Shown: positions 10,424 through 56,165 of the stretch, piece after piece
How the letters are laid out: each line of letters opens with the position of its first letter
How positions within the stretch are numbered: position 1 is the stretch's first letter
Assembly: GCA_903851045.1 (NCBI GenBank)
Contig: CAINNF010000015.1
Location: 96,644 to 160,643, forward strand
Direction: 5' to 3'
DNA from: Candidatus Adlerbacteria bacterium
GTDB lineage: Bacteria > Patescibacteriota > Minisyncoccia > Phycocordibacterales > SBAW01
DNA length: 64,000 nucleotides
Notes under the pieces: generated by a model
Database searches by the model: none
The model's input: only the letters and a program-made list of their open reading frames with translations
What the model was told of the DNA's origin: nothing
Program-made: the position numbers and the translations under genes

Positions 10424-10795
10424 CTAACGGTCATCATCCACTTCTTGCACACGAACTTTTTTTGAAACAACGTTCGTTTGAGCGGTCGTTGTTCTCTTTT
10501 GAGTGACGACCGATATAGGGACCGCGACAGGTTGCGCCGATGACGCAGTCGCGGCGACCATGGTCGGAGCCTGGACTGAAACGTTTGCCTTCGAGATTGA
10601 CACCATCGCCGCAGCTCCGTTCGACGAAGCACGTTGGGTTGCGCTTGCAAAAGCCGTTGCGGGGACCGTCGCCGCGTTCACTGACTCAGTATGCGTATCG
10701 TGTGTGCTTTGGAGTACCTGTGCACTTGCTACAAGCCCCACCAGCAACACCACACTTAAGAAGAACAATCTATTCTCGTGTACGAAGTCCGACAT
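10424..10795 (-). CDS. small membrane-anchored Ala/Ser/Thr-rich protein
   Basis: TM helix LFFLSVVLLVGLVA. Sits between the NqrB-FNR gene and the amidase on the same strand. Confidence 0.45.
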   Translation of the reverse strand: MSDFVHENRLFFLSVVLLVGLVASAQVLQSTHDTHTESVNAATVPATAFASATQRASSNGAAAMVSISKANVSVQAPTMVAATASSAQPVAVPISVVTQKRTTTAQTNVVSKKVRVQEVDDDR

Positions 10796-10800
10796 ATGAC

Positions 10801-12333
10801 TTATACGAAACCAGGGAAGAAGTCACTCTTGATCTTTAGTCGGGAGACTCCCATGCCCGTGAGCGTCTGTTTGAACGCTTCGACCATCGCATGCGGTCCG
10901 GATATGTAGTACGTGCGTTCGAGGTAGTCGGGTATCTCCTGCTGGATAAGCGCCGCGTCGAGCGAATGGTTGAACATCCCTGGTATCGGCTTGGTCTCAC
11001 CGCTGAGCGCGTAGACGGTCTTGATACCGAGCTCGGTCTGCGCGCGATCGAGAATGGGTTTGTAGGCGACATCCGCGGCGGTCTTGTTCGCATAGAGTAC
11101 GACGACCGGGCGCGCGTCTTTGGTGTCGAGCAAGTACTGGATCATGCTGCGAAACGGCGTCATACCGATACCGCCCGCGATGAACACCAGTTTCTTCTTC
11201 GGGTCCTTCGGCAGCACGAAGCCACCCGCGATGTGCGACGCCGCTATCGTGCTCCCCACCTTCATCGAAGCGAGCGCACGCTTGAAGGTGCTCGACGGCG
11301 AATAGAACTTCACCCCGAGCCGCACCTGCCGCTCCGTCGGTGCGGACGCTATCGTGAAGTAGCGACGATTCCCGCGGTTGTCCGGGTACTGATGCCCAAG
11401 CGTCCACTCCATGTACTGCCCCGGCCGGAACGTCATGCGACGATCGGCATTGAAGACGAAGTCGTACACATCGTTCGCCTGTTGTTCGATGGCGGCAAGG
11501 GTCAGGATGTATCGACCCTTCGGACTTACGGCCCACGAGAACACGTTACCGACCAAGAGCGCCAACTCCGGCGTCATATAGAAGGTGCCGATGTGGATAT
11601 TGGGAGCGAAGAGGAACCCGACAATCGCACCGTATGCGACGCGCAGCAGCATGGTCGGTGGTGTCGTGAGCGGCTCCGTGAGCATCACGAACGCAAGAAA
11701 GAATATCGACGTATGCAACACCGGCACGAGAGGAGTGACGATGTCGGTCGGGAACCCGGATGACGACATAAGCTCCGTCGTCACCAGCGTGACCGCGAAG
11801 AAACTGCCGACCAAGTCGAAGCGACGGATCTTGCGCACCAAGAGCAGCCCACCGACGATCACGAACGGCATCAGATAGGTGTTACCGCCCACCCACCAGG
11901 TCGCTGGCTGGTTGATGACAAGTGCCGTGAGCGCGACCGCGAACGCGGCCGGATTGAACAGATGCTTCTTGCCTATCGCAAAGATGTACTTCGCCGCCAT
12001 CGCCCACACCGAAGCGAACACAAGGAAGCCGACACCCGCATGGTCCGTGGCAGACACTGGTGTGATGATGAGTGCGAGAATGAGCGCCGTGATATAGACC
12101 GATTCGACGTTCGTCGCCGCCTCGAACACCCGCGCGAACACAAGGTTCGTACCCCAACACACCGCAAGGATGACAAGAGCCGAGAACGCAAGCTGCGTCG
12201 CATCGAACGGGACCAGGTTGGCGAAGAACCCAAGCACGAACGCCACCACGAGTAGACCCACCAAGTAGTACAGTACGAGACGGTACATGGTGATACGATT
12301 CAAAAAAGTGTCGATGGAGGTCATGGGGTTCAT
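10801..12333 (-). CDS. NqrB/RnfD-like polytopic membrane domain fused to FNR-like FAD/NAD(P)H oxidoreductase domain
   Basis: The N-terminal ~300 aa are multi-TM and include LFNPAAFA (NqrB/RnfD-like). The C-terminal part has RRYFTIAS (RxYS FAD-binding) and GGIGMTPF (NAD-binding). Start and stop overlap apbE (ATGA). Confidence 0.8.
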   Translation of the reverse strand: MNPMTSIDTFLNRITMYRLVLYYLVGLLVVAFVLGFFANLVPFDATQLAFSALVILAVCWGTNLVFARVFEAATNVESVYITALILALIITPVSATDHAGVGFLVFASVWAMAAKYIFAIGKKHLFNPAAFAVALTALVINQPATWWVGGNTYLMPFVIVGGLLLVRKIRRFDLVGSFFAVTLVTTELMSSSGFPTDIVTPLVPVLHTSIFFLAFVMLTEPLTTPPTMLLRVAYGAIVGFLFAPNIHIGTFYMTPELALLVGNVFSWAVSPKGRYILTLAAIEQQANDVYDFVFNADRRMTFRPGQYMEWTLGHQYPDNRGNRRYFTIASAPTERQVRLGVKFYSPSSTFKRALASMKVGSTIAASHIAGGFVLPKDPKKKLVFIAGGIGMTPFRSMIQYLLDTKDARPVVVLYANKTAADVAYKPILDRAQTELGIKTVYALSGETKPIPGMFNHSLDAALIQQEIPDYLERTYYISGPHAMVEAFKQTLTGMGVSRLKIKSDFFPGFV

Positions 12334-13067
12334 AGCGTCAGTTGGGTAAATCCGGTGGTCATCGTGGCGATACCGTGCGCATCGATCGCATAGCCTTCGA
12401 ACCCGGGGAGCTGCTCGATGAAAAAGATGCCGTCCCTACCCATCGCGAACGCCGCGGTCGCGAAACGATCTGCTTCGTAGATGTCGGGGCCGACGACCGT
12501 CAGACTCACGACTTCGGTGAGCGCTGTCCCGGGCACGTGTGGATTATAGATATGCTGACCGCGAACGTATGTGCCGGAGGTCGCTACCCCGCGGCCGCCC
12601 GGTCGTACCACCTTGACAATCTCCTGATGTTTGAACGGGTTTCGAATACCGATGGTCCACGGCTCACCGCGCTCGTCGACGCCCTTCGTCTGGATGTCGC
12701 CGCCCACCTCGACGTAGTAATGGTCGAACCCACGCGACTCCACGAGCTTCGCCGCTTGCCATATCGCCCACCCCTTCACCACACCCGAGGGGTCGATATG
12801 GCCGTCGGGCCGGACGATGGAGAAAAATCCTGCAGTCTCCCTGGTCGTCTGCTCAGCGAGCGCGAATATCTCGCGCATTTCATCGCTGTAATCTGCCGCC
12901 CCTATATCGCCGCGATCTATCTTCGATATCTCGCTGTCTTCCTTGTAGGTACTAAAACGCGCGTCGATCGCGGTAAAATAGTCGAACACCGCGTCGAGCG
13001 TATCGCTGGTAGCCGTTGGTATGTCCACGATGACCGGCATGCCCATGATGATACGCGTGTCTCTCAT
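12330..13067 (-). CDS. apbE: ApbE-family FAD:protein FMN transferase (flavin transferase)
   Basis: Contains VKGWAIWQAAKLV, TSGTYVRGQHIYNP and EADRFATAAFAMG (ApbE motifs). The ATG at 13065-13067 lies 1 nt after the stop of the FMN-binding gene. An alternative upstream start (M19) is possible. Confidence 0.8.
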   Translation of the reverse strand: MRDTRIIMGMPVIVDIPTATSDTLDAVFDYFTAIDARFSTYKEDSEISKIDRGDIGAADYSDEMREIFALAEQTTRETAGFFSIVRPDGHIDPSGVVKGWAIWQAAKLVESRGFDHYYVEVGGDIQTKGVDERGEPWTIGIRNPFKHQEIVKVVRPGGRGVATSGTYVRGQHIYNPHVPGTALTEVVSLTVVGPDIYEADRFATAAFAMGRDGIFFIEQLPGFEGYAIDAHGIATMTTGFTQLTL

Positions 13068-13068
13068 A

Positions 13069-13695
13069 TTAGGAGTTCTTCGCTTGCGCGAGCGCATCGC
13101 CAAGGGACTGTTTGAAGGCGGCGCTCGTGTAGCTCGCACCGGAAGCGCCACTGACGTTCGCGCTCTGCGCCGCTATAGCCTCTTGTTGCAAGGTCGGCAT
13201 GGCCCGCGAGTTGATGCGGATGGAGTTCTGTCGGTCGTTCGGATATTGCAAAAACGTGACGGTCGCCAACTTACCGCCCTGTATCACCACCTGAATTTGT
13301 ACCGTCCCATAGTACGCGTTCGCGGCAGCACCCGTATACGTACCGTCAACATATTGCCCTGTCGGCTTCGCTACGGGAGCTGGCGTCGCAACGGGCACCG
13401 GGATTGGTGTTGGTGCAGGGGCGGGAGTCGGCGTGGTAGTCGGTTTCGGCGTCGGTGTCGAGGTGGAAGTCGGTGTCGCAGGCGCGGTCGGTTGTGCCAC
13501 GACGGGCATATCGGCGGCAATCGGTGGTGTTTGTGTAACCGGCGCCGCCGACGTACCGCTCGTGTCGAGCGCGACATGTGTTTGAGGAGACGTTCCTATG
13601 GCGGAGACCGCAGAGGAGCCACCACCGAGATACTGATACGCGACATAGGCTGCCGAGGCGGCGAACACGAAAAATGACAGAAAAAACTTCTTCAT
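13069..13695 (-). CDS. NqrC/RnfG-like extracytosolic FMN-binding protein (flavinylation target)
   Basis: Signal/TM peptide, Pro/Thr-rich linker and an FMN_bind domain carrying the flavinylation motif ...NVSGASGASYTSAAF. Confidence 0.8.
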   Translation of the reverse strand: MKKFFLSFFVFAASAAYVAYQYLGGGSSAVSAIGTSPQTHVALDTSGTSAAPVTQTPPIAADMPVVAQPTAPATPTSTSTPTPKPTTTPTPAPAPTPIPVPVATPAPVAKPTGQYVDGTYTGAAANAYYGTVQIQVVIQGGKLATVTFLQYPNDRQNSIRINSRAMPTLQQEAIAAQSANVSGASGASYTSAAFKQSLGDALAQAKNS

Positions 13696-13700
13696 GAGCG

Positions 13701-13726
13701 AGTATGATACTCTTCAGTATCATACT
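13701..13726. promoter_or_regulatory. perfect 11-bp inverted repeat AGTATGATACT-cttc-AGTATCATACT (operator or 5'-UTR hairpin)
   Basis: Lies 6 nt upstream of the start codon of the FMN-binding gene, in the divergent intergenic region shared with the 13791 gene. Confidence 0.5.
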
Positions 13727-13790: not shown

Positions 13791-14267
13791 ATGAACAGGA
13801 CGACCGTACGCATCATAGTGGGCGCGATCGTGGGCGTGGTTGTGGTCATATATCTCACGACACCCAAGACACCCCCCGCACCACCACTGGCGACCACTTC
13901 GACACATTCGGTCACCCCTACACAACTACCGAGCGATTATCACGAGAATATATATCTCAGCAAGACCGACCCAACGAAAGGCGCTTACATGACCGACTTC
14001 GCGGGCATGACACTGTATACCTCGTCCGATGACCGAACAGGAGTCAGTAACTGCACGGGCGAGTGTGCAAAGGATTGGCCACCTTACTCCTCGGGTGCCG
14101 TATCGCAAAAGCGGTTCCCTGCCAACATCTCGGTCATCACTCGACCCGACGGTTCCAAGCAACTTGCATGGCACGACATGCCGCTCTACTATTATGCGAA
14201 GGATATGAAAGTGGGTGACCTGCTCGGAGACGGCATCGACGGCGTGTGGCATATCGTGAAGCCGTAG
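13791..14267 (+). CDS. COG4315 / 'secreted repeat of unknown function' lipoprotein-like protein (membrane-anchored)
   Basis: TM anchor, then LYTSSDDRTGVSNCTGECAKDWPPY and LYYYAKDMKVGDLLGDGIDGVWHIV repeats characteristic of that family. Confidence 0.6.
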   Translation: MNRTTVRIIVGAIVGVVVVIYLTTPKTPPAPPLATTSTHSVTPTQLPSDYHENIYLSKTDPTKGAYMTDFAGMTLYTSSDDRTGVSNCTGECAKDWPPYSSGAVSQKRFPANISVITRPDGSKQLAWHDMPLYYYAKDMKVGDLLGDGIDGVWHIVKP

Positions 14268-21149: not shown

Positions 21150-22481
21150 TCAGTGAGCGCCCTCCAGCCGATCTTCCAGCTTCCCTGCCAGGAGGCTGTA
21201 GAAGAACGGATTGCGCGTGGCGAGAATCTGCAGAGCCGCCAAGAGTGCGTTCCCGGGACTGAGCACAGTGCTCACCGGGACGCCGCTCGGCATCCGCAAC
21301 GAAGACCAGACATCCTCAGAGAAACTGCCGACGGTTGCAGGAACCGTGATAACCGGAGCGACCGACGCAGCCGACAACAGAGGCCCGGCAGCGTTGCTCA
21401 TGCCGACGTACGCGATAACCACCGAGCTTGGCACCTCTTGGAGCATCCGCCGAAGGGTCGCGAGCGCCCGCTCCGGTTCCTTGTGGGCGGAGCAAGTTAC
21501 GATCGGCATAACGAAGTTCTGAGGCAACAATGCACCAAGCGCTTCACACGCCCTATGGAACACCTCAACATCGTCCGACTCCGACCCACGCCACAGAATG
21601 ATCCTCTGGCGAGGAAGGTGGAATCGGTCGGTGAGTTCGGCAACCAGCCGATACTTGGCGAGCACGTCATCAAGTGCACCACCATCGCGGTAAGCTTGCT
21701 TGTCGATGTACGCGCCGTTATCGAGAACGCGCCATGAATCATTATCGATGACGTCGGCAAGAAGCAAAGCGCCGCCCGAAGTAAGACCGAACTCCACCTT
21801 AAAGTCGACGAGAGTGCGGCCTTCAAGTTGCCACGCTTTCTCCAACACGAGGAATGCCTGACGAGCAATGCGAGCCATCTTGTCGAAGAGCGCAGCTTCG
21901 TTATCGACAGTAAAGACTTCCGCGTCGCTGAGCACGAGGAACGGCTTCGCGCCATGGATCGGCTTCGCGGGGTCGTACAGGCAGATCCTCGGCTCGTCGG
22001 CGTTTGGATCATAGATCATGAGCGGATCGTCGCACGGCAATGCACATTCGCCCCAACGCTTACCGTTCGTCTTAAGATAGAACTCGACGACAAGTCGCGG
22101 GAAGAGGTGACCCTTGGAGATGTGCGGATGTCGCTTAAGAAAGGACCCGTGCGCCTCGCGCCGGACCACCACTTCGTACGGGAGCATGTCGCAAAGGTGT
22201 GCGACGAACGACGTTGGGTCGCGCTGAAGTATGTACGCGACCGGAAGGCCGCACGCACTCAACAGTCGAAATACGTTGGAGGTCGTTCGAGTCGCGAGCG
22301 CCGCCTTGCCCGACAGGATGTCGTGCTTAGCACCATCACCCGCAGTGATATCGTCTTTTGCGGCGAGGACTCCTAGACCAGGCCGTCCTTTGACCGCAAA
22401 AACTCGCTTGGTCTTACCTTCGGCGAGCAGCTCGCCGTTCGGATAGGCGAAGATGAGATCATCGGCTGTCTGATTATTCAT
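21150..22481 (-). CDS. bifunctional SAICAR synthetase (PurC) / AIR carboxylase-mutase (PurE-class) fusion, PAICS/ADE2-like architecture
   Basis: N-terminal half: GKTKRVF, DDITAGDGAK, VDFKVEFGL (PurC). C-terminal half: RIILWRGSESD, AYVGMSNAAGPLLSAASVAPVITVPATVGSF, MPSGVPVSTVLSPGNALLAALQILA (PurE). ATG at 22479-22481. Confidence 0.8.
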   Translation of the reverse strand: MNNQTADDLIFAYPNGELLAEGKTKRVFAVKGRPGLGVLAAKDDITAGDGAKHDILSGKAALATRTTSNVFRLLSACGLPVAYILQRDPTSFVAHLCDMLPYEVVVRREAHGSFLKRHPHISKGHLFPRLVVEFYLKTNGKRWGECALPCDDPLMIYDPNADEPRICLYDPAKPIHGAKPFLVLSDAEVFTVDNEAALFDKMARIARQAFLVLEKAWQLEGRTLVDFKVEFGLTSGGALLLADVIDNDSWRVLDNGAYIDKQAYRDGGALDDVLAKYRLVAELTDRFHLPRQRIILWRGSESDDVEVFHRACEALGALLPQNFVMPIVTCSAHKEPERALATLRRMLQEVPSSVVIAYVGMSNAAGPLLSAASVAPVITVPATVGSFSEDVWSSLRMPSGVPVSTVLSPGNALLAALQILATRNPFFYSLLAGKLEDRLEGAH

Positions 22482-22605
22482 CACCATTCCCCTTTCGTGG
22501 GATATGTGGTTGATCGAAAGAAACAAGTCCAAAAATACCCTACTCGAAAAACAGAGGCTTCGCAACAACACTAAAGGCGCTCACCAAATAGTTGCACCTT
22601 AACCT

Positions 22606-22640
22606 TCCCGCGAAACATCTCCCCGCAGCTCGATAGCTCC
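22606..22640. repeat. 35-bp direct repeat, copy B (TCCCGCGAAACATCTCCCCGCAGCTCGATAGCTCC)
   Basis: See copy A. Lies in the divergent region upstream of the purC-purE gene. Confidence 0.8.
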
Positions 22641-22736
22641 GTTCTTGGCCTGGCATACATGGTCGTCGCAGGTGTCTTTACATACAATAATAAATATGTT
22701 ACATAAGTACTGGCAACCTGTTCTGGGAGAACAACC

Positions 22737-23357
22737 ATGCGTTTTGTGTTCGGTACGCGTTTTGCGTTGTGGATCGTTGTGTGGGCAGCGATCACCATCA
22801 CCTTGACCACTTGGGTTACCGCTTTGCTTATCGCGTGGGGTTTGGACGATACTCAGTCTGTCCTCGACCCGAGTGCGCACCTGTACGTCCTGCGCCAGTT
22901 TGTCTGGTGTATGGAGCTGTTCGCCTATGGCTCAATGGGGTGGAATGCGCTCGCAGGCGGTTACCTGATGCTCATGGTGCTTGGCATGCTGCTGGTTGGC
23001 GACCTTGGCATTCAGTTCGGGCTCTTCAAGAATGAGCTCGGCGAGATCGACAAGGTGCAAAACCGCGTTCTGCACTACTGCACCGTTCTCTTCCTCATCC
23101 AGGCCTACATCGGCGTCGGGAGCTGGATGATTCTGTACTTCATCAGCGAGCCCAGCGCTCACCTGGCGTCGATGACCCTGATTGAGGGCTCGAGGAGGCT
23201 GTTGTTTACGATTGGTGCACCCGTCCTCGTGATCATGAGCGGTCTGTACATGATGGATTTCCTGGGCAAGCAGTACATCATCGGCACCGCACCCCCGCGC
23301 TGGCTCCCCTCCCCCGAGCTTCGCGCCCGCATGCGCCGCTTCGGCCTGGGGCAGTAA
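22737..23357 (+). CDS. polytopic membrane protein (hypothetical)
   Basis: SD GGGAGAA. 5-6 TM helices. Terminator hairpins at 23383-23420. Confidence 0.55.
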   Translation: MRFVFGTRFALWIVVWAAITITLTTWVTALLIAWGLDDTQSVLDPSAHLYVLRQFVWCMELFAYGSMGWNALAGGYLMLMVLGMLLVGDLGIQFGLFKNELGEIDKVQNRVLHYCTVLFLIQAYIGVGSWMILYFISEPSAHLASMTLIEGSRRLLFTIGAPVLVIMSGLYMMDFLGKQYIIGTAPPRWLPSPELRARMRRFGLGQ

Positions 23358-23469
23358 TCCCAACCCCCGCCTCGTGCAAAGACTCGACACAAAGTCCTTG
23401 CACCAGCGGGGACTTTTTTATATGAAGTTCGTTCAACTAACGCAGTCAGACTACGTTAGTTCCAAGAAG

Positions 23470-25248
23470 CTAGAGCGTTTCGATAATTTTTGAAAGTAGC
23501 TGAGTTATACGCACTTTTGTTGTGTCAGAAAAATTACTCAATTTTATTTTCTCTTCATTGACTCCTATCATAAAATCTCTAGCGACAATAACTTTAGATA
23601 GCTTTGCAGCTTTCATAAACTCAGAATTTGTCGTAGCCTCATGGTTAGCATTATTTGATTTGAGGACAACATGATTAAACTCATCTCGAGAAAAAAGATC
23701 TTCAATTCCTTGGCAACCGTCGATCTTTATAAGTTTTTTCTCCTCACAGACCATGGAATCCTTTAGCTCTTTAAGAACTTTTCGTCCATGAGGTTCATCA
23801 TCAAGCACAATTGAAAAACTAAGCCCCCAACCGAGCATGAGATTTGCCAACAAAGGGAGATTCGCGCATCCGGTAGCTGGCAAAAAATTGACAGTCTCAC
23901 TTTTTGAACAAAGTTTCCAAAAAGCTTTAAAATAAAAAAACGCTGATATCTCTTCCAACAAAACATTATTACTTCTAGAAATCACAGTCTGATGAGATAC
24001 GTCTATCCCCATGTTTGTGTAGAGAGGCATCAAAGTGTCCATAGAGGCGCTTCCGAGGTCTTGAAAAGGAATAATTCTTGTCTCACTTTTTTCATCCTCA
24101 GTATCTGTTCGCTCAATTGCCAAGATACGATAGACCTTATCCATATCCAGCAAATACGGAGAATGGGTCGTGAAAATTATTTGAAGATTTTTCCTTTGCT
24201 TCTCAAACACCCTAAGGATATCCTCCTGCGCTTTGGCGTGTAGATTAGCTCCCGGTTCGTCTATCAAGAAAACCCTGCCTCCCCCTCTCCTCGCAGAAGC
24301 CTCAAGTTTTAAATAAAACGAAATAAACCATTTAACCCCCTTGCTTCGCTGGGCTGGAGACTGGCGCCCATTCTTATCCCTAATCCAAAATATAAGGTAT
24401 GGTTGTCCGGGTTTACCTAACTCTGAACTCTTGTGGTATTTTAACTCCAAGACGATCTCTATTTTGTCTTTCTTCCCAACCGTCTGGTGCCAATATTTTT
24501 GCAATTCAACATTTACCTTTTTACTTTGCACTTCGAGAAAGTCATCAATGAGGCGGACACTCGAAGGATTCAATAGATCCTCTATCTTTACGTCAGCTAT
24601 ATATAGAAAATTCTTTGCACCCTCATAGCCTAGAGCTTTTGTGTTTTTCTTCACTAAATCATCGAGATCAATTGTGGGAGGGAGTAAGCTGTCTTCTTTA
24701 AATATGTCTATACTTGGCAAACTATTAAATAATTCATCCACAAAATCACTTTCCTTTATTAAAACAAGTCTTTCGACTCGCTCAGAGATTTCTTCTAGAC
24801 TTTGGGTGGTGGTGTTATTTCCAACCTGGCTCTTTTCAGCCTCGGCAAAATTCTGCCACACACCTCTTAACTCTTCGTTCTCTAGAACCAACTCACCACC
24901 CTCGTAGTTGCCTGACTCCCATACCCTTTTCAAAGCAATACACTTTCCAATTTTCTCAAAGACTTTTTTGAAATTTTTAGGTAATTCTTTACCTTCAGAT
25001 AAACACTCTTGGAGTTCTTCGAGACTATCGAACTTAAAAATACAGGTAACTTCTGGCATTAAACCAGTGCTCCGAATATCATCTTGGTATACGTCCCCGG
25101 TTTCAAAGGCATGGATACCATCCAATACCGAAGATTTTCCTGACTCGTTTTGTCCAACAATAAGCGAAATCCCATCTGGTGACAAATCCTGAAATCCAGT
25201 ATCAATAATTGATCGAAAGTTTTGAATCCTGAATGCTTGTAATCGCAT
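23470..25248 (-). CDS. OLD-family endonuclease-like protein: N-terminal ABC-type ATPase (AAA_15/21-like) + C-terminal TOPRIM-like domain; AT-rich island
   Basis: N-terminus MRLQAFRIQNFRSI; Walker A GQNESGKSS; Walker B/D-loop RVFLIDEPGANLH; H-loop IIFTTHSP. C-terminal VLLEEISAF and IVLDDEPHG are TOPRIM-like E and DxD motifs. GC is about 40%, against about 56% in the flanks. Confidence 0.8.
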   Translation of the reverse strand: MRLQAFRIQNFRSIIDTGFQDLSPDGISLIVGQNESGKSSVLDGIHAFETGDVYQDDIRSTGLMPEVTCIFKFDSLEELQECLSEGKELPKNFKKVFEKIGKCIALKRVWESGNYEGGELVLENEELRGVWQNFAEAEKSQVGNNTTTQSLEEISERVERLVLIKESDFVDELFNSLPSIDIFKEDSLLPPTIDLDDLVKKNTKALGYEGAKNFLYIADVKIEDLLNPSSVRLIDDFLEVQSKKVNVELQKYWHQTVGKKDKIEIVLELKYHKSSELGKPGQPYLIFWIRDKNGRQSPAQRSKGVKWFISFYLKLEASARRGGGRVFLIDEPGANLHAKAQEDILRVFEKQRKNLQIIFTTHSPYLLDMDKVYRILAIERTDTEDEKSETRIIPFQDLGSASMDTLMPLYTNMGIDVSHQTVISRSNNVLLEEISAFFYFKAFWKLCSKSETVNFLPATGCANLPLLANLMLGWGLSFSIVLDDEPHGRKVLKELKDSMVCEEKKLIKIDGCQGIEDLFSRDEFNHVVLKSNNANHEATTNSEFMKAAKLSKVIVARDFMIGVNEEKIKLSNFSDTTKVRITQLLSKIIETL

Positions 25249-25298
25249 AATGGTACAAATCTACCACATTCCTTTAAATAAAATAGCAACAAGACATA

Positions 25299-25964
25299 TT
25301 ACTTCGGATTTTTGATGAGCCCGACCACTTTGCCGCTGATGGAGAAGTCATCGTCTTCGTGGATATAAATGGGCTCGTAGTCGAGGGAGGACTCGGCTTT
25401 GAGGACTATTTGGTCGTTTTCTTTTCGGTCGTCTATGTAGCGCTTGATGGTGGCTTTGTTGTCGACCAAGGCTAGGACTATGTCGCCGGTTGAGGCAGTG
25501 CGGCTTTCGCTGTCGACTATGACATAGTCGCCGTCGTCGATGCACTTCTCGCCCACCTTCGCGCGGTTCATGGAGAGGCCGTCGGTTTTGATGGCGTAGA
25601 GGCCGCGCGGGCGGGAGCGGCCGACGAGGCGGCTGGAGACGCGGAGGAAGCCTTGGAAGTTCGCCTCCGCGAAGATAGTCGCGGGGCCGCAGTTGGCGGT
25701 GCCTATGACGGGGATAGAGAACATGCTCGTTTTGTTTTCAAGCAAGCCCTTGGACCATGTCGGCGTCGTGGCGGCGCGGGTCATCACGCCTTTGGCGCGG
25801 TCGAGCGTGACGAAGCCTTTTTTCTCGAGCTGGAGAAGGTGGTGTTTGATCTTCTGCGGAGCCTCCTGGGGGGCGCCTATGAGCCGCGCGACATCACGAA
25901 GCGAGAGCTTCGCTAAATTTTCGCTACGGGAGAGCTCGAGTATTTTCTCTTGGATCTCGTGCAT
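25299..25964 (-). CDS. lexA: LexA-like repressor (N-terminal LexA wHTH + C-terminal S24 peptidase)
   Basis: IQEKILELS...HLLQLEKKGFVTL is a LexA DNA-binding domain. GLSMNRA (Ser) and KRY (Lys) form the S24 catalytic dyad. It is 50 nt upstream of the OLD gene on the same strand. Confidence 0.8.
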   Translation of the reverse strand: MHEIQEKILELSRSENLAKLSLRDVARLIGAPQEAPQKIKHHLLQLEKKGFVTLDRAKGVMTRAATTPTWSKGLLENKTSMFSIPVIGTANCGPATIFAEANFQGFLRVSSRLVGRSRPRGLYAIKTDGLSMNRAKVGEKCIDDGDYVIVDSESRTASTGDIVLALVDNKATIKRYIDDRKENDQIVLKAESSLDYEPIYIHEDDDFSISGKVVGLIKNPK

Positions 25965-26379
25965 ACAAAGAAGTGTACCACAGCGAAGTTATACAGCAAG
26001 TACTGTACATACGACTTGACGTTCTTTACACCCTTGCTACGATTAAAGAGTTCTCGGGACCATTAGTCTCCTCGCGAGAAGTCGAGTCGCGAGCGCGAGG
26101 ACCAACACATGACACGCATGCCATCGAGCAAGCGAGGGGCGAAGGGCACACCCCACCACGTGGTGACCGGCAGGCCAACCACCGCACAGTACGCAGCGCT
26201 CCACCCGGAGAAGGTGCAGTGGGTGAAGCAGGCACGGCAAGGGGCCGGGGCGTTAGACTAGGTGCACCGGTGCAAGAGCGAAAAGAAAAGTACACGAGAG
26301 GGACCCGCGCGAGGAGGTGAACACTCACCTATTCACGCGGGTTTTCTATATATCACTGACAGGTGGACAAAGGAAAAGC

Positions 26380-39835: not shown

Positions 39836-40612
39836 TTATCGTCTCGGTACCCACACGATGAGCGATGCGTTGTCCTCGAGTCCTTGTTCTTCTCTCCATC
39901 GAAGGACATCTTCGGCGTCACAACCAGCTGCCGCTCTCGCGAGGAGACCGGTGAACGTGCGCGAGTCGATACTTGAGCGACCCGAATCGAACACACCATC
40001 CGACGCGACCATCACCACGCTACGCACACCGAGACGGTAGTGAGACAAGGTCGGCGTTCGACTAAGTATCCGCCGCAGCGTTCGGTTACCCAACGCACGA
40101 CTCAACTGCAACCCTGCACCAGAGGGCACACCGTCTTCGGATACATCATAGATATACCCACCTTCGTACACGGCTCCCCGACCGATCGCCGCCTGTCGCT
40201 CGACTTCGTTCGTGCGAACGTTGTGTTCAACACTGACACGGACCTGGCTGTTTCGATCGACGATGATGACGGGTGAGTCTCCCACTACGACCGCGGTAAC
40301 GATGCGTTTCGATTCGTTCACGCACGCGAGCGAAAGCGTCGTGCCAGCGTCATCAAGCGACGTACGAGCATCCAGCTGCGCAACGATCTTGGCGAGCTCG
40401 TACCCTATGTCTGGCGCTTCAGGGTCGAATAAACGCGGCACGACCTTCGAGCAGTATCTCGCCACCTCCCCACCGCCGTGACCGTCCAAGACACCAAGCA
40501 GATGACCTTTTCCGTTGCGTGCACTCGCGAACGGCACATGCACCAGATGGTCCTCCTGATAGTCACGCGGACCCTGCACTTGAGCAGCACTCACGACCCC
40601 TCGCAAGAACAT
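39836..40612 (-). CDS. PP2C-family Ser/Thr protein phosphatase
   Basis: Contains DYQEDHL, LGVLDGHGG and VASDGVFD, all PP2C motifs. A terminator lies at 39787-39815. Confidence 0.85.
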   Translation of the reverse strand: MFLRGVVSAAQVQGPRDYQEDHLVHVPFASARNGKGHLLGVLDGHGGGEVARYCSKVVPRLFDPEAPDIGYELAKIVAQLDARTSLDDAGTTLSLACVNESKRIVTAVVVGDSPVIIVDRNSQVRVSVEHNVRTNEVERQAAIGRGAVYEGGYIYDVSEDGVPSGAGLQLSRALGNRTLRRILSRTPTLSHYRLGVRSVVMVASDGVFDSGRSSIDSRTFTGLLARAAAGCDAEDVLRWREEQGLEDNASLIVWVPRR

Positions 40613-40680
40613 GACCGTTTCCTCTGTTCGACCTACATTTTATACAACACCGTATTTAACAGCGCGTCAACTCATAGTGT

Positions 40681-40709
40681 TTGACATACAATTTCATCAC
40701 TTGTACTAT
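40681..40709 (+). promoter_or_regulatory. sigma70-like promoter TTGACA-17nt-TACTAT for kinase operon
   Basis: Near-consensus -35 and -10 elements about 45 nt upstream of the kinase ATG. Confidence 0.6.
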
Positions 40710-40752
40710 CGGCATAGAGACACCTGAGTCCTTTCACAGCAAGAGGGCAGCC

Positions 40753-41775
40753 ATGGCCGCAGGATCACATCCGACCGCTTTCGAGAGCGACCTCTACCGC
40801 AGACTTGGAGTACGCTTTGACGCGCCCGTCGAGGTCATCAATGCCGCATACACGGCCTTGATGAAGCTCCACGGCCCACGCGCTATGAACGACGGCGACA
40901 TAACCGCAAAAGAACTCGGAGAAGCAAAAGCTATCCTCTCTGGCCGCGACCGATCGGCGTACGACGCCTACCGAAAGAGTTCCGTACGCGGAACGATCGG
41001 ACCATACCGACTTCTGCATCGGGTTGCGGAAGGAGGGTTCGGCACCACCTACAAGGCCGAGCATGTGCTCGTGGGAGAACCATCATGCATCAAGCACTGC
41101 TCTGAGATCTCACCGACCGCAGAGATGATCCTGAAGCAAGAGACCAAGGCTATCTGGAATCTTCGACACTACGGGATCCCGGTCATGCGGGACCTGTTGA
41201 AGCTCGATGATGGCAGCTACGCGCTCGCGATGAGCTGGGTCGATGGACTCACGCTTCAGCAAGTGGTCGAGCAGCACGGCAGACTCGATCCCGAGCATGT
41301 CGCATGGATCACTGAGCGCATTCTGAACACGCTCACGTACTTGCACCACCACGGTGTCGTTCACGGCGACATCAAGCCGCAGAACATCATCGTGCAAGAC
41401 ACGACGCATATCGTCGTGTTGGTCGACTTCGGACTCTCGGTGATCAAACCTTCGGCTACGTCCAACAGCAAGGGATACACCGACCTGTTCTCGCCGCCGG
41501 AACAAGTCGCGGGTACGACACTCATCCCAGGGTCCGACTTCTACAGCCTGGGCATGACGATGCTATACGCACTCGGCGGAGGATACTCGGCGGTCGAACG
41601 CAAGGATGTCCCAGCGAGTCTACCGGACCCGATGTGTGATTTCATCAAGTCGCTCATCGTCCGTGGCGTGCTCGAGCGCCCAAGGTACGCCGAGAAAGTC
41701 TTCGAAGACCTCAAGCGTGTCCGCATGCGAAGCTTCGGCAGAGAACATTCGGACATGAGACTGTTCACCCACTGA
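40753..41775 (+). CDS. Hanks-type Ser/Thr protein kinase with N-terminal J-domain-like segment
   Basis: AAGAGGG SD. Kinase motifs HGDIKPQNIIV, DFGLS and SPPE. The N-terminal ~70 aa (DLYRRLGVRFDAPVEVINAAYTALMKLHGPR) have a J-domain-like pattern without HPD. Confidence 0.8.
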   Translation: MAAGSHPTAFESDLYRRLGVRFDAPVEVINAAYTALMKLHGPRAMNDGDITAKELGEAKAILSGRDRSAYDAYRKSSVRGTIGPYRLLHRVAEGGFGTTYKAEHVLVGEPSCIKHCSEISPTAEMILKQETKAIWNLRHYGIPVMRDLLKLDDGSYALAMSWVDGLTLQQVVEQHGRLDPEHVAWITERILNTLTYLHHHGVVHGDIKPQNIIVQDTTHIVVLVDFGLSVIKPSATSNSKGYTDLFSPPEQVAGTTLIPGSDFYSLGMTMLYALGGGYSAVERKDVPASLPDPMCDFIKSLIVRGVLERPRYAEKVFEDLKRVRMRSFGREHSDMRLFTH

Positions 41776-56091: not shown

Positions 56092-56165
56092 TGGCTGCGA
56101 GACTAGGATTCGAACCTAGATAGACAGATTCAGAGTCTGTCGTCCTACCATTAGACGATCTCGCA
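56092..56165 (-). tRNA. tRNA-Gln (anticodon CUG)
   Basis: Manual cloverleaf: acceptor UGCGAGA/UCUCGCA (U1-A72, G73), D-stem CGUC/GACG, anticodon stem ACAGA/UCUGU with loop CUCUGAA, T-arm CUAGG-UUCGAAU-CCUAG. CCA is encoded. Confidence 0.8.

Follow-up and report, generated by a model that had tools for sequence, protein, structure and literature searches.

A three-gene Nqr/Rnf-like operon with a signal-less ApbE in Candidatus Adlerbacteria and its predicted role in the export of electrons from NAD(P)H

How might a bacterium in which no respiratory chain is known dispose of its reducing equivalents? The question is raised by three adjoining minus-strand genes (10801–13695) in a 64,000-nucleotide stretch of Candidatus Adlerbacteria DNA (GenBank assembly GCA_903851045.1, contig CAINNF010000015.1, positions 96,644 to 160,643; the whole stretch is called the window below). 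The genes code for an anchored NqrC/RnfG-like protein with a flavin mononucleotide (FMN)-binding domain (FMN_bind), a compact ApbE-type flavin adenine dinucleotide (FAD):protein FMN transferase, and a fusion of an NqrB/RnfD-like membrane domain to an FNR-like FAD/NAD(P)H module. Patescibacteria have tiny genomes, and to our knowledge they have neither a respiratory chain nor quinones. A self-contained and widely conserved membrane complex that oxidises NAD(P)H would thus be among the few candidate routes for the disposal of reducing equivalents or for the driving of reactions on the cell surface, perhaps where the cell meets a host. The operon is a typical member of the already described Nqr/Rnf-like class and does not represent a new kind of system. 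It probably codes for a two-subunit Nqr/Rnf-like membrane oxidoreductase, equipped with its own flavin transferase, that would export electrons from NAD(P)H.

The three co-directional open reading frames (ORFs) are tightly coupled, as a first, sequence-only reading of this DNA had noted. The gene for the FMN_bind subunit (13069–13695, 208 amino acids) is followed by the ApbE gene (12330–13067, 245 amino acids from the ATG) and the fusion gene (10801–12333, 510 amino acids). ApbE and fusion genes share a true 4-nt overlap (ATGA), as had been described. The junction between the FMN_bind and ApbE genes reads ...TCC TAA T ATG AGA and is a 1-nt spacer (base T), not the 1-nt overlap (TAAaATG) proposed earlier. 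The mechanical ApbE ORF reaches back to a GTG at 13151, but this extension overlaps the FMN_bind gene. All of the motifs quoted in the sequence-only reading were recovered, namely VKGW and TSGTYVRGQH in ApbE, LFNPAAFA (amino acids 125–132), RRYFTIAS (323–330) and GGIGMTPF (387–394) in the fusion, and S185-G-A-S188 in the FMN_bind protein. Its domain assignments also stood up to Pfam, Protein Data Bank (PDB) sequence, profile and Foldseek searches. A protein identical to the 510-residue fusion is present in a second assembly (GCA_903951275.1, contig CAJBBF010000001.1).

The fusion carries PF03116 and PF00175 in a single protein (33.1 and 51.8 bits), and both the ApbE and the FMN_bind genes lie directly upstream, the latter coding for a protein with a hydrophobic N-terminus. 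These are the features of the "NQR/RNF-like systems", defined as flavinylation-associated clusters with a PF03116-PF00175 fusion and with ApbE or FMN_bind genes no more than five genes away, of which one or more must have a predicted signal peptide (Méheust et al., 2021; eLife, PMC8238504). In the original survey 127 clusters fitted this description, and most of their hosts were Actinobacteria or members of the candidate phyla radiation (Méheust et al., 2021). In an AlphaFold-multimer model of the homologous complex of Ktedonobacter, the flavinylation site of the NqrC-like protein lies beside the pocket in which the NqrB-like subunit would hold a flavin (Huang et al., 2024; mSystems, PMC11334425/PMC10979944). 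The role proposed for these systems is a one-way transfer of electrons from NAD(P)H to extracytosolic FMN (PMC8238504, PMC11334425). The minimal NAD(P)H-driven, NQR/RNF-like route to extracytosolic FMN that the sequence-only reading envisaged for the window operon is essentially the same proposal, arrived at independently from the same architecture. We found no essential difference between the two: the window operon has the fusion beside a signal-anchored FMN_bind protein and ApbE, belongs to the candidate phyla radiation, and has a membrane subunit without the flavinylated threonine. To the published class it adds an ApbE without an export signal, a long tether, a conserved S-A-[S/T]-W-W motif, the frequent company of an extracytoplasmic function (ECF) sigma factor gene, and a wider spread (at least 550 species-level genomes, including Chloroflexota, versus 127 genomes in 2021). 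A full-text literature search returned no other paper on Nqr/Rnf-like systems, and no experiments.

The breadth of the family is apparent from protein and genome searches alike. A word-indexed protein search with the fusion gave 7995 of 8000 scored candidates at E ≤ 0.001. The best 120 matches were 64–87% identical, and the few named ones were assigned to Patescibacteria, Paceibacterota or Magasanikbacteria. A scan of one genome per GTDB species identified at least 550 stretches encoding a relative, the best 80 of which are the basis of all synteny counts given here. They come from Patescibacteria (Adler-, Kaiser-, Nomura-, Uhr-, Magasanik-, Doudna- and Azambacteria, and Paceibacterota) and from Chloroflexota (Anaerolineales and Caldilineales). 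The membrane half alone retrieved 323 cluster representatives (50% identity clusters) at E ≤ 1e-30; most of these are about 490–515 residues long, indicating that the fusion is the normal state of this protein. An FMN_bind homologue was found in 69 of the 80 loci and an ApbE in 63. The order FMN_bind-ApbE-fusion prevails in most of them, and in a minority the FMN_bind gene is followed directly by the fusion gene, with ApbE elsewhere. The same order in most of 80 species-level genomes is more than chance, so the earlier proposal that the three genes form a module is borne out.

The module appears to be self-contained. All-against-all clustering of the flanking ORFs in the 80 loci yielded no further conserved partner or acceptor gene shared by more than about one quarter of them, the commonest extras being an ABC ATPase and, in about 20 loci, an ECF-type sigma factor accompanied by small membrane proteins. 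The unit is therefore three genes, with no terminal acceptor encoded. The neighbours of the operon in the window (Lipoprotein_15, amidase, deacetylase, MarR and DUF1993 genes) are not conserved with it in the 80 loci, and hidden Markov models of the three families detected no second copy of the module in the window. Nor did we identify NqrA, NqrD or NqrE, or RnfA, RnfB, RnfC or RnfE, among the window ORFs scanned or as conserved genes in the 80 loci; a complete NQR or RNF membership does not apply.

The small subunit has the layout of an NqrC/RnfG-type protein. Its N-terminal hydrophobic anchor (MKKFFLSFFVFAASAAYVAYQYL) is followed by a tether of about 94 residues and a C-terminal FMN_bind domain (amino acids ~115–205; PF04205 at amino acids 128–202, E 8e-6, 26.8 bits versus a cut-off of 22). 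The last 86 residues of the domain (amino acids 119–204) align with the FMN-binding domain of PDB entry 8p2a (E 4.7e-14). In this alignment, S185-G-A-S188-Y-T-S stands opposite S-G-A-T-Y-T-S, and Ser188 (codon at 13132–13134) takes the place of the threonine in ...DAVSGATYTS, which predicts it to be the acceptor of a phosphoester-linked FMN. The full acceptor stretch is S182-G-A-S185-G-A-S188-Y-T-S. Across 74 homologues the acceptor column holds Thr (57) or Ser (17), preceded by an invariant Ala187 (74/74) and a nearly invariant Gly186 (72/74). Position -6, usually Asp in the D-x-x-[ST]-[GS]-A-[ST] motif, is the exception; it is Asp in 38, Asn in 26 and Ser in 5 members of the family, and Ser here. 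Ser188 is predicted to be the only canonical covalent-FMN site of the module.

Export of the small subunit is suggested by hydropathy. The N-terminal hydrophobic 17-mer reaches a Kyte-Doolittle value of at least 1.8 in 68 of the 74 homologues and of 1.45–1.75 in 5 more (73/74). The tether that follows is rich in Pro, Thr, Ser and Ala and varies from 19 to 195 residues across homologues (median, 67; 94 here). Anchor, linker, PF04205 domain and S185-G-A-S188 motif thus agree with the secreted Pro/Thr-linker protein with a flavinylation motif of the sequence-only reading.

The membrane half of the large subunit (amino acids 1–272; 11518–12333, minus strand) is the more divergent partner. PF03116 (NQR2_RnfD_RnfE) matches it at amino acids 150–267 only (E 5e-8, 33.1 bits versus a cut-off of 27.7). 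When a 57-sequence profile of the first ~272 residues was compared with the whole PDB, only four distinct sequences scored at E ≤ 10: one RnfD (8ahx_D, E 1e-5) and three NqrB proteins (E 0.01–0.03). An hhalign comparison with the single E. coli RsxD sequence gave a probability of 93.8% over the last 107 columns only. Curated RnfD families score the protein far below their cut-offs (22 bits versus 207 for NCBIfam TIGR01946 rnfD; 21.8 versus 415 for NF002011 RsxD). A decaying RNF/NQR remnant without function, or a transporter or ion channel merely regulated by the FNR module, would accord with the partial PF03116 match and with the presence of two of the six NQR/RNF subunit types; we consider it very improbable, as the ORFs are intact, the cofactor motifs are invariant, the synteny is conserved, and relatives occur in at least 550 species-level genomes from two phyla. 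The profile also argues against a transporter, having matched nothing but RnfD and NqrB in the PDB, so the alignment to an unrelated transporter family that would have spoken against the sequence-only reading did not appear.

Alignment to NqrB also locates what this half of the fusion has lost. A co-linear HMMER alignment falls into two pieces, residues 48–125 with NqrB 135–205 and residues 144–261 with NqrB 272–393; the N-terminal membrane part is placed by the first, weak segment together with the FNPA motif. NqrB 206–271, which includes the flavinylated Thr236, has no counterpart in the fusion, and neither has the region ~125–228 of RsxD. About 70 residues of the RnfD loop, or NqrB 206–271, are thereby reduced to about 19–30 residues. 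The distance from FNPA to the next conserved helix reflects the same loss, as it spans ~105 residues in RsxD, including GISQAT (Thr187 by count), and ~32 residues in the fusion. On this alignment, the flavinylated RnfD/NqrB loop is deleted, and the fusion has no acceptor Thr in a periplasmic loop ([ST]-x-A-T after the FNPA helix) of the kind that marks NqrB and RnfD proper. The covalent FMN that the sequence-only reading had placed on the membrane partner is consequently not supported: with the acceptor loop gone, no canonical motif is left. With only a partial motif in its place, the protein conforms to the NqrB/RnfD-like subunit of the Nqr/Rnf-like class, for which no conserved acceptor was reported (Huang et al., 2024; PMC11334425/PMC10979944).

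The short loop that replaces the flavinylated one is itself conserved. Located just after the FNPA helix, it has the consensus [N/G]-Q-S-A-[S/T]-W-W and reads P143-A-T-W-W147 in the window protein (11893–11907, minus strand). Ala144, Trp146 and Trp147 are kept in 81 of 81 homologues, and position 145 is Ser in 49, Thr in 25, Asn in 4 and Ile in 1. Neither of the two papers on the class discusses this motif (Méheust et al., 2021; Huang et al., 2024). It could be a flavin-docking site or a vestigial acceptor. An active acceptor at Ser/Thr145, giving two covalent FMNs as in NqrB plus NqrC, would be in keeping with the invariant Ala144, with the hydroxyl residue at position 145 in 74 of the 81 homologues, and with the predicted position of the motif on the outer side of the membrane, as for the acceptor of RnfD and NqrB. 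However, P143-A-T-W-W147 fits only three of the five positions of the ApbE acceptor motif, lacking the Asp at -6 and the Ser or Thr at -3. Furthermore, Asn or Ile occupies position 145 in 5 of the 81 homologues, and the published analysis of the class noted no conserved acceptor in the subunit (Huang et al., 2024). Flavinylation at residue 145 is improbable on this evidence.

The topology of the membrane half was modelled from the helices of an AlphaFold2 (AF2) prediction and the spread of Lys and Arg in alternate loops, which suggest ten helices with both termini inside and the S-A-[S/T]-W-W loop outside. The full-length model had a mean predicted local distance difference test (pLDDT) score of 83.8, with block means of 60–97 over the membrane half and the lowest values at amino acids ~190–260. 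All of the top 50 Foldseek matches in the PDB were retrieved via the FNR domain, and the full-length model is therefore silent on the membrane fold. A model of the membrane half alone, built from the single sequence, was poor (pLDDT 51) and was not used.

The C-terminal half of the fusion (amino acids 273–510 and the stop codon; 10801–11517, minus strand) is an FNR-like module. PF00175 (NAD_binding_1) matches amino acids 384–488 (E 1.5e-13, 51.8 bits versus a cut-off of 22), and the sequence matches in the PDB include the reductase modules of flavohaemoglobins, T4moF, benzoate dioxygenase reductase and the FAD domains of NqrF. Foldseek searches with the AF2 model aligned it with 4eh1 (TM-score 0.85–0.86, root-mean-square deviation 2.1–2.3 Å over 243 columns) and with the NqrF FAD domain (TM-score 0.73), and also retrieved Streptococcus pneumoniae NOX (8qta, 8qt6). 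The R-x-[YF]-[ST] barrel and G-G-x-G-x-x-P NAD(P)H motifs of the family are present, with R324-Y-F-T327, G387-G-x-G-x-T-P393 and S478-G-P invariant or nearly so across homologues. The sequence gives no decision on a preference for NADH or NADPH. A Pfam scan of the fusion gave no Fer2 match, hence no 2Fe-2S ferredoxin domain, and the module directly follows the last membrane helix in the AF2 model. It does not have the N-terminal helix and 2Fe-2S domain that precede the FAD domain in NqrF.

Together, these parts suggest a pathway for the electrons. ApbE would move FMN from FAD onto Ser188 of the small subunit, and NAD(P)H would reduce the FAD of the FNR module. From there, electrons could cross the membrane via one or more non-covalent flavin sites in the NqrB-like domain. 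Such sites would correspond to those that hold riboflavin and FMN in NqrB, and the invariant A-[S/T]-W-W of the outer face would be the likely flavin-docking pocket. The covalent FMN of the tethered subunit would then take up the electrons and hand them on to an acceptor located in the envelope or beyond it. The outcome would be a one-way export of electrons that needs no haem, Fe-S cluster or quinone and that could re-oxidise NAD(P)H in organisms without a respiratory chain. Candidate acceptors are Fe(III), O2, an envelope repair enzyme or a host-derived compound. As no terminal acceptor is encoded or conserved nearby, extracellular electron transfer and redox repair are guesses.

Comparison with better known systems delineates this predicted pathway. 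Like the Na+-NQR of Vibrio cholerae (NqrA-F plus ApbE), the window module has homologues of NqrB, NqrC and the FAD/NADH module of NqrF and would depend on ApbE for maturation. Unlike Na+-NQR, it lacks NqrA, NqrD and NqrE, a 2Fe-2S domain and a flavinylated Thr in its NqrB-like part; its NqrB-like domain continues directly into the FNR module, and it has no quinone end-point. Electron flow would be one-way and outward rather than semicircular, and we have no evidence for ion pumping. RNF (RnfD/RnfG; RsxD/RsxG in E. coli; 8ahx of Azotobacter vinelandii) provides the best match for the membrane half, RnfD, and has an RnfG-type FMN_bind partner, but the window module has no RnfA, RnfB, RnfC or RnfE, and the ~70-residue loop with the acceptor Thr is missing. 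The NOX/ferric-reductase family (S. pneumoniae NOX, 8qta) likewise joins an NAD(P)H dehydrogenase of the FNR type to a membrane domain through which electrons move outward. Its membrane domain is a six-helix di-haem fold, whereas the window module has an NqrB/RnfD fold, presumably with flavins, and a separate flavinylated subunit. Flavin-based extracellular electron transfer in Listeria (Ndh2, EetA/B, PplA and FmnB) is alike in that electrons from NADH reach an ApbE-flavinylated, tethered FMN_bind protein outside a single-membrane cell. The other features of that system (a type-II NADH dehydrogenase, a quinone pool and an extracytosolic ApbE homologue, FmnB) are not found in the window module.

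The ApbE of the operon raises the main difficulty for this scheme. Pfam PF02424 matches it with an E-value of 3e-37, and its best match in the PDB is V. cholerae ApbE (6nxi, E 5.7e-21). His172 aligns with the His of ...YSHIIDP in 6nxi, a position that is Gly in entry 6nxj, and EADRFATA aligns with ADGLATG. We take the counterpart of His172 to be the catalytic His257 of the V. cholerae enzyme, and the aligned D and T to be its Mg2+ ligands. With the fold, the His and the D/T retained, the protein is predicted to be an ApbE FAD:protein FMN transferase. Between its STYK..SE and DPSGxVKGW motifs it has ~48 residues fewer than the V. cholerae enzyme. As judged by alignment and hydropathy, there is no signal peptide or lipobox in this ApbE or in any syntenic homologue aligned (L001–L080 set), because the start lies only 7 residues before the first core motif and strand (MG[MT]P) in all of them and the longer mechanical ORFs of homologues add no hydrophobic, signal-peptide-like extension upstream. 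It thus lacks the N-terminal signal peptide or lipobox of extracytosolic-type ApbEs. Most ApbEs are exported lipoproteins, and cytosolic ApbEs serve cytosolic substrates, as does a second, cytosolic ApbE of Klebsiella pneumoniae that acts on a soluble fumarate reductase (2025 ApbE review). Neither paper on the Nqr/Rnf-like class comments on an ApbE without a signal (Méheust et al., 2021; Huang et al., 2024). An ApbE without an export signal facing a substrate that is predicted to be exported leaves the maturation step without an explanation, and this is the main such point of the module.

One solution would keep all the parts and mature the small subunit in the cytoplasm: the signal-less ApbE would flavinylate Ser188 before export, or would itself leave the cell by a non-classical route. 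This would alter the assembly of the complex and not its role. The absence of a signal peptide or lipobox from every syntenic ApbE aligned is what such a route predicts, and ApbE can modify short, unstructured peptide tags that bear its motif. Cytosolic ApbEs such as the second K. pneumoniae enzyme are also on record (2025 ApbE review). On the other hand, an N-terminal signal anchor normally gives co-translational export, which hides the C-terminal domain from cytoplasmic enzymes, and the FMN_bind protein has no twin-arginine motif for the export of a folded domain. We hold cytoplasmic maturation to be possible, though unlikely. A broader variant deserves about the same modest weight. In it, a cytoplasmic ApbE would attach the FMN before or during Sec export, or ApbE would exit by an unfamiliar route; alternatively or additionally, S-A-[S/T]-W-W would act as a cryptic second acceptor or docking site.

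A cytoplasmic-type ApbE could also mean that the whole system faces the cytoplasm, as a membrane-associated NAD(P)H:acceptor reductase that keeps the FMN_bind domain inside, acts on a substrate in the cytoplasm or the membrane, and has the NqrB-like domain only as an anchor or a substrate site; substrates of cytoplasmic ApbEs are, after all, known. The orientation of the small subunit points the other way. By the positive-inside rule, the MKK before its anchor would place the rest of the protein outside, and the long Pro/Thr-rich tether is typical of extracellular linkers. In addition, NQR and RNF have the FMN pocket of the homologous subunit on the periplasmic side, where the domain is also docked in the published multimer model (Huang et al., 2024). 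We therefore judge a cytoplasm-facing system to be highly unlikely.

The two-subunit electron exporter remains our preferred interpretation. The acceptor motif of the small subunit, the cofactor motifs of the FNR module and the motifs of the transmembrane half are all under strong purifying selection. S. pneumoniae NOX offers an earlier example of an FNR-type dehydrogenase fused to a conduit that takes electrons across the membrane. Several points weigh against this interpretation. The similarity to NqrB/RnfD is significant only over the C-terminal ~110 residues of the membrane half, and the sequence does not demonstrate a cofactor for the passage of electrons across the membrane. Neither in the window nor in the 80 loci does an acceptor gene accompany the module. 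ApbE lacks an export signal here and in all syntenic homologues aligned, and its substrate domain is predicted to be outside. Finally, the full-text literature search found no biochemical data on any Nqr/Rnf-like member.

If the broader variant, with its cytoplasmic ApbE or cryptic second site, is true, the complex with its flexible 19–195-residue tether would be an all-flavin wire across the membrane that ends in a "fishing-line" flavin head, and many Patescibacteria might have it as their main redox device in the membrane. The small three-gene version in the window would be a convenient construct for a first biochemical test, as well as for the question of how a signal-less ApbE could mature a substrate that is exported. 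For a class already described, the residual interest lies in that ApbE, in the outer-face A-[S/T]-W-W, in the long tether and in the breadth of the family in Patescibacteria.

The region upstream of the operon contains an inverted repeat at 13701–13726, AGTATGATACT-gaag-AGTATCATACT, with no strand of its own, which ends 5 nt before the ATG of the FMN_bind gene at 13695. The sequence-only reading had described a perfect 11-bp palindrome overlapping the 5' untranslated region. The palindrome is there, but it is not single: each 11-bp arm (AGTATgATACT and AGTATcATACT; AGTAT-N-ATACT) is palindromic on its own, making the element a tandem pair of one unit. It is unique in the window (4 strand-matches versus 0.45 expected) and overlaps the -10-like hexamers TATGAT and TATCAT on both strands. 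We regard it as a possible promoter or operator. That it is a conserved operator was rejected, since the closest relative (L081, with a fusion 87% identical) has only a shorter palindrome, ATAGTAtatTACTAT, at the same position, the window has no other copy, and the RNA fold of the region is unexceptional (z = -1.64). The element sits in a divergent intergenic region of 95 bp if Met30 is taken as the likely start of the neighbouring gene. This neighbour encodes a Lipoprotein_15/SCO0930-like secreted repeat protein (13791–14267, plus strand; mechanical ORF from 13704; PF03640, E 1e-22). Its pairing with the module is kept in L081 and in none of the 80 species-level loci.

Other genes adjoin the module in the window or in its relatives. 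A 123-residue ORF (10424–10795, minus strand) starts 5 nt past the stop codon of the fusion gene and is a possible fourth gene of the operon. Its product has an N-terminal hydrophobic segment and a tail rich in Ala, Thr, Ser and Val. No Pfam family matches it, the ORF is not conserved in the related loci, and of two public annotations of this contig only one includes it. In about 20 of the 80 genomes, a gene for an ECF-type sigma factor, followed by one or two genes for small, anti-sigma-like membrane proteins, adjoins the module, usually divergently and 0.1–1.5 kb upstream of the FMN_bind gene (L002, L003, L006, L008, L011, L014, L016, L018, L019, L042 and about 10 more). This arrangement hints at control by envelope stress in those relatives; no ECF sigma factor gene lies next to the module in the window. 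A gene similar to NAD-dependent D-2-hydroxyacid dehydrogenases lies immediately upstream of the FMN_bind gene in three loci (L009, L013 and L015) and of the fusion gene in another (L017). It fits a link to NAD(H) turnover, although the cases are too few for a conclusion.

Elsewhere in the window, a low-GC (guanine plus cytosine) island at 22000–26000 has a GC content of 0.46–0.50, compared with ~0.56–0.57 for most of the window. It is a candidate mobile or defence island and includes genes for a 592-residue AAA_15/AAA_21 ATPase (23470–25248, minus strand) and an S24 LexA-like peptidase (25299–25964, minus strand). The GC content is low again at 50–56 kb, near the only tRNA gene of the window (56095–56165). 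At 39836–41775, a PP2C phosphatase gene (minus strand) adjoins a Ser/Thr protein kinase gene (plus strand), an ordinary signalling pair unrelated to the module.

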